Source of the DNA: Thermoanaerobaculia bacterium
GTDB taxonomy: Bacteria; Acidobacteriota; Thermoanaerobaculia; Multivoradales; Multivoraceae
Direction: 5' to 3'
Assembly: GCA_963664405.1 (NCBI GenBank)
Contig: OY761158.1
Coordinates: 1,376,001 to 1,440,000, forward strand
DNA: 64,000 nucleotides
The notes beneath the pieces were generated by a model that was not told where the DNA came from, searched no databases, and saw only the letters and a program-made list of their open reading frames with translations. Numbering within the stretch: position 1 is the first letter of the stretch; every line of letters starts with the position of its first letter. Positions 41,720 to 45,224 of the stretch are shown here, piece after piece. A program made the translations under genes and the position numbers.

Positions 41720-41745
41720 GCTACAGAGCGCTACAGATGCTACAG
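41720..41745 (+). promoter_or_regulatory. Three GCTACAG direct repeats just upstream of vapB (candidate operator)
   Basis: GCTACAG at 41720, 41730 and 41739; the last ends 8 bp before the ATG. Confidence 0.45.
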
Positions 41746-41752
41746 TCAGTTC

Positions 41753-42001
41753 ATGAACAAGAGCATCAGTCAGCGGGAGCTTCGCAACGACTCAGGCGCG
41801 ATTCTGCGTGAAGTCCAGGCTGGACAAACCCTAATCGTGACTCGGAACGGTACTCCGATCGCGGAGCTTCGACCCTTACCACCCCGTCGCTTCGTCCCTC
41901 GAGCGGTCATCGGCGACGCCGCGCGGCGGGCGCCCAGCATCGACGCAGCTCAGTTCCGCAGGGATCTCGACGAATCCGTGGATCACACGGTCGATGGCTG
42001 A
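41753..42001 (+). CDS. vapB: Phd/YefM-family antitoxin
   Basis: ISQRELRNDSGAILREVQAGQTLIVTRNGTPIAEL; overlaps the PIN gene. Confidence 0.88.
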   Translation: MNKSISQRELRNDSGAILREVQAGQTLIVTRNGTPIAELRPLPPRRFVPRAVIGDAARRAPSIDAAQFRRDLDESVDHTVDG

Positions 42002-42395
42002 TCCAACTCGCGGCCTACTCGACACCTCGGTAGTCATCGATCACGACCAGATCGACCCGGAGCGGCTCCCCGACGAATCGGCGATCACGGCAGTGACGCT
42101 CGCAGAGCTCGCAGCAGGCCCCCATGCCACGGCGAATGAACAAGAGCGTGCCCGACGCCAGGACAGGCTGCAGTGGGCCGCGGCCACCTTCGACCCTCTA
42201 CCCTTCGACGCCAACGCCGCTCGGACCTACGGCCGCGTCTTTGCCGCCGTCCGTGCCGCCGGTAGATCGAGTAGAAGCCGGTTCGCCGATCTCCTGATCG
42301 CGTCGACCGCTGCGGCGAACGGCCTTCCGCTATACACACGAAACCCAGCCGACCTCAAGGCACTCGAGGGCATCGTCGAGATCGTGGAGCTTTGA
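41994..42395 (+). CDS. vapC: PIN-domain toxin
   Basis: LLDTSVVI, TLAEL, DLLIASTA, LYTRNPAD. Confidence 0.92.
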   Translation: MADPTRGLLDTSVVIDHDQIDPERLPDESAITAVTLAELAAGPHATANEQERARRQDRLQWAAATFDPLPFDANAARTYGRVFAAVRAAGRSSRSRFADLLIASTAAANGLPLYTRNPADLKALEGIVEIVEL

Positions 42396-42520
42396 ACGTC
42401 GAGAAACATGGGCGGCGGCGTGAGCCCGGCTGAACCTCGACCCAAGCAAGTCTCAACGATCTGAGAACCTCCGAGCGTTCAGCCGCTGAGGAAGAAGGAG
42501 ACTCCCGCTCGTATATCCTT

Positions 42521-42680
42521 GCGCTGCCGGAGCCCCCGAGGATTAATTATTGGTCGTGACAACTGCGACCGTGTAGTGTCAATGGTCCGGCCAAGGCAGA
42601 CCATTACAGGCCTCGTAGCTCATCTCAACTGGCGCGAATGGCGCCGTCGTCGGATGGAAAATCCGGAGGGGCCTCGGCGC
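42521..42680 (+). ncRNA. Candidate retron msr/msd ncRNA
   Basis: Imperfect a1/a2-like pairing of 42521-42544 with 42660-42680; internal hairpins GGTCGT/GCGACC (42552-42570) and AATGGTC/GACCATT (42581-42605); directly upstream of a retron RT. Confidence 0.55.
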
Positions 42681-42688
42681 TTCCTGTC

Positions 42689-44444
42689 GTGAGCATCAAT
42701 TCACTGGACCGCGAGATGCGCGAGCGTTTCCTAGCTGTGGAATCGCGTGCTGAACTAGCAACGATCATCGGATTCAGTGACCGGGAGCTCTGCAACATCC
42801 TGTACGGTCGCGGCGAGCGGTCGAAATACCGCACGTTTGAGACTCCTAAAAAGAGGGGCGGCAAGAGAACTATTTCGGCACCACCACACAGGCTGCGCAA
42901 CCTGCAATCTAAGCTCGCCGATGTGCTCTACAAAGTATTTGAACCGCGAGCTTGTGTACACGGATTCGTTCGCGGTCGCAGCATCGTAACTAACGCCGAA
43001 AAAACACTGCGGGAGAAGGTACCTCTTGAATATCGATCTCGAGGACTTCTTCCCTACGATTCACCTCGGCCGAGTACGGGGCGTCTTTACGAGCCCTCCT
43101 TTCAACATGCCTCCGGCGATCGCGACTGTCATCGGGCAGATCGCCTGCGATACTGACGGCAAGCTACCGCAGGGCGCGCCGACGTCGCCCATTGTGTCGA
43201 ATCTAGTTTGCGGGCCGCTTGACACAAGCCTTCAGCGACTCGCTCAGTCGAACGGTAGCTTCTACCCACGATATGCCGACGACATGAGCTTCTCGACCAA
43301 CAGAAGCAAGTTCCCCGATGACCTCGGCCACAGGCTCCCTGGCGGTACCTTTTCCGTTGGACCGCATCTTCGGTCACTCATAGTAAGCCACGGCTTCAGA
43401 ATCAACTTCCACAAGGTGTGGCTGAGAACGAGTGCAGAACATCAGGAAGTGACGGGCCTCACGGTCAACGAGTTTCCTAACATCACGCGGCGTGTAATCA
43501 GACAAACCCGCGCGATTCTCCACAACTGGGACACTACTTCGCTGGGCCAAGCAGCGCAGGTCTTTTCTCAAAAGTGCACTTCAGGTCAACCCACCGGCGA
43601 AGATGCATTCAAGCGTTTCGTTCACGGCCGGCTTTCGTTCATTGGGATGGTCCGCGGTCCAGACGACCCGGTCTACCGTCGGCTTGCAACGAAGCTCGCG
43701 TTCATCGAAAAAAGGACGCCTCCGGACTCGGGCGGGGCGGGGCCCGCGCCGTTGCGAGGAGGGCAAGCCACGACTTCGGGGTGGCAGAGAGTATATGACC
43801 GACTCCGAGAGCACCTGTACCTGCTCCAACTGGACCACGCCCAATCGGATGAGTTTGCTGCTGACCAGCTCGGAACCGCCTTTGGCTATGAGAGAGACCT
43901 CCTGATCACGGCAGGGCACAACCTGGACGGGTTTGACGTCCGCGCGATGGATCATTCGCTTCCGGAGAACGGGATCACTCCAATCAAAGTGAAGTTTCTG
44001 AACGAGCCCCATGGCGTCGACTGTGGTCTCATAACTTTGCCTCCGAATTCGCGTCGAGGATGGCCAGGACAAATCCCAACCCAGGAGCGAATCCCGCAAG
44101 TTGGAGAGGAGGTCGCGACGATAGGGTACCCCCCCCGTTGCCCTGCAGCGGCCCTCGTTAGAAGCCTAAGAGGAGACGTTCAGTTTATCCAGGTGAACTT
44201 TCGGCAAGATCCGGGCCTCAGCGGCTCGCCGCTCGTCGACAAGCGGGGCTATGTACTCGGTATTGTCGTCGAGAATGCCCTCCAGAAGCCCAAACGCACG
44301 GGGATCGATGAAGAGGCCAGCAGCGCCTCCACTGAACATGGTCAGGTACTACCTCTTGGTTACGTGCATCGACTACGGCAAATCGATTGGGGAAGTCGAG
44401 CCGGCAGCACACTGCCGGCACCAGCGATTCCCTCGTCGGAATAG
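42689..44444 (+). CDS. Retron-type reverse transcriptase fused to a C-terminal trypsin-like serine protease; +1 frameshift at A6 run 42999-43004; start uncertain (42638, 42689 or 42716)
   Basis: KKRGGKRTISAP, HGF, NAEKH (after removing one A), DLEDFFPTI, LPQGAPTSP, YADD (43272), VTG (43449); protease TAGH, VDCGLI, GYP, GLSGSP. Confidence 0.88.
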
Positions 44445-44594
44445 CTGTGGCGTGAAACTCTATGAACACCGGGCTAGCCAAATCGCCTGGCGGCACGTGC
44501 TGAACTCTCGGAACCGAGCGCCCCGGCTGTGAGCTTCTTCGGGAGAGGAGTGCGTCCCCAGGCTTATCTGCAGACGGGTCGCGCAGCGGTCTGT

Positions 44595-45224
44595 CTAGAC
44601 CGAAGCACTCTGGCGAGTACTTACGGCCTCGTACCAGCGCTTTGTACGGCTGTGCCCGTCTTCCGGGCCGAGCTTGACCCAACCTGCGAAGTCGACGACA
44701 ACGAGTGCGGTGATATCGGCCAGCGAGAAGCTGCTGCCTGCCAAGTATTCGGAGTCGGCCAGGCGCTGGTCCAGCATAGCGAAGAACTCGACCCCCCGGG
44801 CCAGCCCGCGCTCGGCGAGCTCGGGGATCTGCTCGTAGTTTGTAGGCCCGGTAACGGCTCGCCCAGCCATTCGCTTGCTGCGATTACGCAGCGCGTCGGC
44901 GATCGGCCAGAGTCCTTCTAGCTCGACGCGTGCGTTCCAGCTCGAGACCAGTCCGCGCTCCTCAGGTGTCGTTCCCATCAGCCGGGGCTCGGGCACCATA
45001 GCTTCCAAGTAGGTCGCGATCCCGATGTTCTCGGTGAGGCAGGTCCCATCGTCGAGCTGGAGTACGGGGACGGTGCAGCGTGGGTTGATCTCTTTGAAGG
45101 TATCGGTAAGTTGCTCTCGTTGCCGGAGATTGACCTCGACGGTCTCGACAGTGAGACCTTTCTCGGCGATGAAAATGCGTGCCCGGCGCGGGCTCGGAGC
45201 CGTCTGACAGTCGTAGAACTTCAT
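44595..45224 (-). CDS. Glutathione S-transferase family protein
   Basis: APSPRRARIF, INPRCTVPVL, YLAGSSFSLADI. Confidence 0.9.
   Translation of the reverse strand: MKFYDCQTAPSPRRARIFIAEKGLTVETVEVNLRQREQLTDTFKEINPRCTVPVLQLDDGTCLTENIGIATYLEAMVPEPRLMGTTPEERGLVSSWNARVELEGLWPIADALRNRSKRMAGRAVTGPTNYEQIPELAERGLARGVEFFAMLDQRLADSEYLAGSSFSLADITALVVVDFAGWVKLGPEDGHSRTKRWYEAVSTRQSASV

Follow-up and report, generated by a model that had tools for sequence, protein, structure and literature searches.

A probable type XI retron RNA upstream of a frameshifted reverse transcriptase-protease gene

The RT-protease gene and its neighbourhood

The window analysed here, a stretch of 64,000 nucleotides from a Thermoanaerobaculia bacterium, contains on its plus strand a gene for a reverse transcriptase (RT) and a protease that is split between two frames. 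The 5′ part (42689–43004) has a GTG start and is 69% identical to residues 1–105 of the homologue P0002, matching positions 3–100 of the PADLOC RT-Protease_XI profile, and the 3′ part continues in the other frame (43005–44444; positions 100–489, E 4e-94), such that two overlapping ORFs match consecutive stretches of the type XI RT-protease profile. Type XI RT-Protease is also the best PADLOC match of the 472-aa part. Pfam identifies RVT_1 together with a protease domain, Trypsin_2 (E 4e-9), and there is no TOPRIM fusion of the type I-C, Eco2-like kind, RT-Toprim models matching the RT part only.

The break is a one-base frameshift in a six-A run (42999–43004) inside the NAxxH motif, which is present but split by it; the YADD (43272–43283) and VTG (43449–43457) motifs lie in the 3′ part. 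Alignment with homologues indicated that the protease retains its H, D and S columns and lacks 11 residues near 44130–44150, and that a Pro precedes RYADD where all 11 of the homologues aligned have Ser or Thr. The closest full-length proteins, P0002 and P0003 (64% and 61% identical), are single ORFs, the RT and protease share one ORF in P0002–P0005 and P0008, and the same is true of 11 out of 11 of the closest full-length homologues aligned; both parts of the gene described here are 64–69% identical to P0002. The frameshift and the deletion are identical in three public contigs: contigs from three of four sequencing runs span 42300–44600 with no difference, one or more of these full-length contigs possibly deriving from the source sample, and a piece from the fourth run that covers the A run likewise shows no difference. 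Because the contigs agree, we rejected sequencing error as the cause of the frameshift and take the lesions to be real. Since the RT and the protease do not share an ORF, we file the locus as a broken copy of a type XI retron, which the frameshift and the protease deletion together mark as probably a decaying pseudogene and which, because its RT gene is frameshifted, probably makes no msDNA.

The RT start is best placed at the GTG at 42689, the codon that lines up with the first residue of P0002, the closest intact homologue (over the 105 aa noted above), with 42716 as the second candidate. This is in keeping with the initial annotation, which had favoured these two positions over 42638; we likewise rejected the ATG at 42638, which lies inside the msd region described below, homology beginning at 42689.

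Matches to the RT-protease were found in 2 of 60 related genomes and in 1 of 400 genomes of the phylum, none of them close to the 64% homologue, and a single-protein scan of viral contigs returned no match. The locus is not flanked by a direct repeat of the kind that marks an insertion. Other RT-like matches in the genome lie at C1 2677472–2680759, 3047822–3049612 and 6397799–6399589, and some have identical scores at separate places, which suggests that these are repeated mobile RT elements.

Directly upstream of the retron RNA, Pfam identifies a Phd/YefM antitoxin and PIN-domain toxin gene pair (41753–42395). Together, this pair and the retron are flanked by genes that, from the look of their translations, are acyl-CoA dehydrogenase-like and glutathione S-transferase-like, and we read the pair and the retron as a small defence patch. 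Three copies of GCTACAG occur within 26 nt (41720–41745) just before the antitoxin start and are a likely operator for autoregulation.

A conserved RNA element upstream of the RT

The initial annotation of the region in front of the RT had proposed a retron layout in which two arms (42521–42544 and 42660–42680) pair around an AT-rich spacer and two hairpins (42552–42570 and 42577–42608), with a CGGAT/ATCCG hairpin (42651–42665) competing for the second arm. All of the sequences it quoted are found at these coordinates, and the AT-rich spacer between the first arm and the hairpin is indeed present at 42544–42552. In our map, which is likewise of the plus strand, the arms are a1, at 42526–42544, and a2, at 42660–42678, which pair at 15 of 19 positions in one ungapped register, an inverted repeat longer than the 8 bp looked for in a retron. 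The a1 arm ends in a conserved ATT and a2 begins with a conserved AAT, and the sequence, the model alignment and covariation in relatives all place the arms here; the proposed pairing is conserved with compensatory changes, its extent being most likely the shorter one. The first unpaired base after a1 is A42545, which faces A42659, is a G in most relatives, and corresponds to the priming G of Eco2-type retrons. Hairpin 1 (42552–42570; 6 bp with a 7-nt loop) is a conserved and covarying msr stem-loop and probably the element recognised by the RT. Further downstream lies a conserved CAATG-type motif (42580–42584) that, judging by U51/G52 of Eco2, is probably where reverse transcription stops, followed by a predicted msd template of ~75 nt (42584–42658) that is variable in relatives and whose ends are assigned by homology. 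Upstream of a1, a probable −10 hexamer, TATCCT (42514–42519), lines up by eye with TATAAT-like hexamers located 6–10 nt before a1 in several homologues and implies a transcript start near 42526; a strict promoter and terminator scan returned no site. We note that a GGCGC/GCGCC hairpin at 42631–42645, inside the predicted msd and absent from the initial annotation, appears in both RNA and DNA folds.

Because this copy alone folds hardly above chance, the case for the element rests on its relatives. The minimum free energy (MFE) structure of 42515–42690 has the arms paired and forms both of the additional hairpins mentioned above, with z = −1.24 (20 of 200 shuffles as good), and a second fold gives z = −1.55 (13 of 200), its MFE structure using the local CGGAT/ATCCG hairpin and its centroid the arms. 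Five homologues give z-scores of −3.9 to −6.7. The arm repeat of this copy (13 nt, 77%) is similar to one found in a control stretch inside the RT (13 nt, 85%). Folded as DNA, the msd has z = −0.27 and no long hairpin, compared with −0.9 to −3.0 in five homologues. Rfam contains no match up to E 10.

Upstream regions of homologous genes, sampled from three collections (the 80 best loci in each), provide that case. Using a repeat criterion chosen after the data were seen (11 nt or more at 77% or more, with 95–155 nt between the arms), we found a long-range inverted repeat upstream of the RT in 23 of the 25 loci examined (24 of the 34 whose match reached the protease, plus L029); of 25 control stretches taken from within the RT, 2 have one. 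L089 and L110 failed the criterion, and in L061 the repeat scored is not the true pair of arms. In a plain MAFFT alignment of 24 sequences, pairing reaches 83% for hairpin 1 and 86% for the inner ATT/AAT stem, and RNAalifold recovered from this alignment hairpin 1 only, since the arms are out of register there. In an unfitted alignment of eight sequences, picked for having their arms in register, 86.5% of cells are paired and 18 of 24 pairs are changed on both sides, whereas none of 500 shuffles of the same alignment scored as high and slid controls reached 36–49%. A covariance model built from these eight sequences (R1), which had seen the copy in the window, gives one match in the window and one each in 59 of the 82 other loci sampled (4 of them training loci, 2 partial matches), always on the strand of the RT and either at its start or upstream of the RT match by up to ~360 nt, the latter distance being that in L011; among more distant loci it matched 20 of 94 (3 training). 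Aligned to R1, an alignment that leans towards the model, 59 sequences are 92.7% paired with double changes at all 24 pairs, and hairpin 1 is 99% paired with all six of its pairs changed on both sides. The initial annotation had suggested looking for covariation upstream of RT-protease homologues, and what emerges is a conserved, covarying a1/a2 stem and hairpin 1 in the retron layout that it had proposed.

The remaining parts of that proposal fared differently. The hairpin at 42577–42608 is present in sequence and forms in the MFE structure, and the CGGAT/ATCCG hairpin is present and is used in one MFE structure, but neither is conserved: together they have ~41% of cells paired, a value reached by 398 of 500 shuffles (this region is unmodelled and its alignment rough), and we rejected both as conserved elements because their pairing is at shuffle level. 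Single folds of L058 and L049 place the conserved AAT motif in a loop, and the hairpin at 42577–42608 buries that motif.

A second model, R2, was built from 53 loci with the window left out, although its training alignment was made with R1. With default filters R2 found no match in the window or the genome; with filters off, the top match in 25 kb is 42526–42678, which scores 20.8 bits (E 0.0052, a rough value), and the one after it has 10.3 bits. Since other held-out members score 20–55 bits, this top rank indicates that the copy in the window is a true but low-scoring member of the family.

The RNA family also precedes RTs with other C-terminal parts, including a TIR domain in L063, a domain with no Pfam match in L057, and further examples in L031, L085 and others, which may reflect effector swapping on one RT-RNA cassette. 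Before the single RT of L133 there are tandem short versions (~114 nt) at 2073–2187 and 2275–2388, and similar short versions occur in L103, L106, L115, L118 and L121. A second, weak model match at L127:5694–5890, ~2.3 kb downstream of the RT match, is perhaps another retron RNA.

Comparison with known retrons and a predicted mechanism

What the analysis shows is that the a1/a2 stem and hairpin 1 are conserved and covary, that they have a fixed place before the RT, and that the gene is an RT-protease. With high confidence we interpret 42526–42678 as the msr/msd non-coding RNA (ncRNA) of a type XI retron, belonging to an Eco2/Ec67-related family that is shared by a clade-8 RT sublineage with protease, TIR and other fusions, predicted to work by a mechanism analogous to that of Eco2, and sitting in a locus that is probably a decaying pseudogene and produces no msDNA. 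It is a known kind of retron RNA with a variant priming site that is common to intact relatives.

Type XI retrons (PADLOC RT-Protease_XI, PDLC02959/02960) were defined by Mestre 2020 (PMC7736814), the accessible text of which lists type XI without a recognisable ncRNA; here an ncRNA is found and modelled, and in the window copy the gene is frameshifted. As far as its accessible text goes, Khan 2024 includes among individually validated ncRNAs some from clade 8 type XI, and Toro 2026, in the part available, gives RNA models for only two protease-less XI-like lineages. These lineages also have upstream msr/msd-like RNAs with a1/a2 arms, lack the protease, and come without a model for canonical type XI; our comparison with them is by description only. 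Our literature search, which covered accessible main texts, found no ncRNA model for protease-fused type XI retrons, and it found no functional study of the anti-phage activity of the type XI protease. The RNA family described here also occurs, with an A·A priming site, in at least one type XII (RT-TIR) locus, L063, whose fused effector is a different one; the accessible parts of Mestre 2020 and Toro 2026 list type XII without an ncRNA model.

The nearest RT of known structure is that of Retron-Eco2 (Ec67), type I-C1, an RT-TOPRIM protein (PDB 9I2F and 9LM3; E 3e-63 for P0002). According to the accessible text of PMC12916289, priming in Eco2 takes place at G15 and reverse transcription ends at G52, next to U51, and its msDNA has no long hairpin in the cryo-EM structure; the available part of PMC6868368 places the priming G within CAGA. 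The CAATG motif of the window copy lies 39 nt after A42545, and the Eco2 stop lies 37 nt after G15. In contrast to Eco2, the effector here is a protease rather than a TOPRIM domain, the a1/a2 stem is closed by an extra ATT/AAT, the linker is 4–7 nt, and the priming position in the family is not always a G. The annotated Ec67-family plasmid locus L251 has a like layout, with a 13-bp a1/a2 stem that ends in a G facing a G, a U-rich linker and a similar hairpin. Its CAAGG motif follows the stem-end G by 37 nt, which is the Eco2 stop distance. R2 with default filters does not match L251 itself, and matches three RNAs of the L251 sequence type (L207, L215 and L196) at 20–29 bits. Homology with Eco2 and L251 leads us to predict priming at 42545, a template copied from ~42658 back to 42584, and a product of ~75 nt.

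By analogy with Eco2, an intact member of the family would work as follows. A single transcript would start near 42526, its a1 and a2 arms would pair, and the RT would bind hairpin 1, use as primer the 2′-OH of the base next to a1, the first to be unpaired, and copy ~75 nt back to the CAATG motif; the resulting msDNA would then keep the fused protease inactive until phage infection frees it. The consensus supplies the arms, the recognition hairpin, and a predicted start and stop, with which intact RT-protease systems become directly testable. Pipelines miss the RNAs of types XI and XII because neither has a published ncRNA model, going by the accessible parts of Mestre 2020 and Toro 2026.

The priming position and alternative readings

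At the inner end of the a1/a2 stem, where a priming guanosine would be looked for, the window copy has A42545. Tallies of this position were read by eye, and the rows are related by descent rather than independent. In what follows, the first base left unpaired by a1 is written before the dot and its facing base after it. Of the 60 rows of alignment A9, 39 have G·G, 7 have U·G, 6 have A·A (the window, L057, L063, L071, L073 and L084) and 5 have C·A, two of these last being identical and L032, L036 and L031 being among them; we set aside three rows, namely L014 (A·G in the alignment given, A·A after a shift), the atypical L059 and the partial L080. Beyond A9, A·A occurs in L013, L035, L050, L218 and L098, G·A in L052 and in the weak second match of L127, and A·G in L252. 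One group of five similar RNAs comprises one G·G, two C·A and two A·A members, the RTs of L030 and L031 being 53% identical. The RT domains of the 14 non-G members checked are open over the matched range, and intact genes among the non-G members include whole RT-proteases in L071 and L081, a whole RT-TIR in L063 and an intact 538-aa ORF in L057.

Nearly every non-G row has an A at the priming position or the next one, and because of this adenosine priming fits the data; we infer that non-G members may prime from adenosine. The accessible text of Khan 2024 describes the branching base as "most frequently a guanine", wording that is not absolute. No report of adenosine-primed retrons was found in the openly accessible literature searched. 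As a broader and more tentative proposal, to which we give rather less than an even chance, the clade-8 sublineage would pick its priming nucleotide by geometry, and the quarter to third of members without a priming G would branch DNA from an adenosine 2′-OH, much as in intron lariats; the facing base would co-evolve (A·A or C·A replacing G·G, or U·G with an A coming next), protease, TIR and other effectors would all rely on one RNA family, and the locus in the window would be a dead adenosine-primed member. Were adenosine priming true, a priming G would not be required in the prediction or engineering of retron RNAs, and G-based searches would overlook part of the family.

An alternative about which we are evenly divided accepts the RNA as real and places the primer elsewhere, with G42541 or G42538 priming after being freed by a slip of the inner stem or by formation of the CGGAT/ATCCG hairpin, or with non-G members making unbranched msDNA or none. 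In the 24 rows of A6, read by eye, a G lies 3–4 nt upstream in 8 of 8 rows without a priming G as compared to 6 of 16 with one, L084 has a G one base downstream, and the local hairpin does appear in one MFE structure. A product without a branch has a precedent in Retron-Sen1, which, in the accessible part of PMC6868368, lacks an apparent priming G and has no 2′-5′ link. However, in the C·A members L032, L036 and L031 no G is left unpaired from the end of the stem to hairpin 1, the local hairpin lacks conservation, and G42541 is Watson-Crick paired in the register of the family.

It is also conceivable, although we consider it unlikely, that the two adenosines, A42545 and A42659, are mutations from the decay of a dead copy and carry no information on the family. 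In its favour, the gene is broken and the score of the RNA is among the family's lowest, but this explanation needs two G-to-A changes at exactly facing positions. Moreover, A·A is also found with the intact genes of L071, L063 and L057, and two RTs that are 71% identical go with different bases at both positions, G·G in L017 and A·A in L050.

Less probable still is that the locus continues to work, with slippage or ribosomal frameshifting at the six-A run yielding some full-length RT-protease. The frameshift does fall in an A run, the YADD, VTG and protease H, D and S residues are retained, and the identity of both parts to P0002 remains at 64–69%; six A residues are, however, a short run for slippage. 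The single ORFs of the 11 closest homologues argue against this reading, and the 11-residue loss in the protease, the Pro before RYADD and the weakened RNA fold point to decay. That G+C-rich intergenic DNA folds in this way by chance, as the weak z-scores, the similar repeat inside the RT and the failure of R2 under default filters might suggest, is highly improbable and largely refuted by the alignments, by motifs, spacing and position that match the family in 59 of the 82 sampled loci, and by the top held-out match in 25 kb falling at the exact arms.

For experiments on an RNA of this family, the copy in the window is probably dead and would be a poor reagent, intact relatives being better suited. 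Upstream of one such relative, the A·A type XI retron of L071, a 402-aa gene (L071:188–1396) resembles, from its translation only, a ClpP-type serine peptidase.
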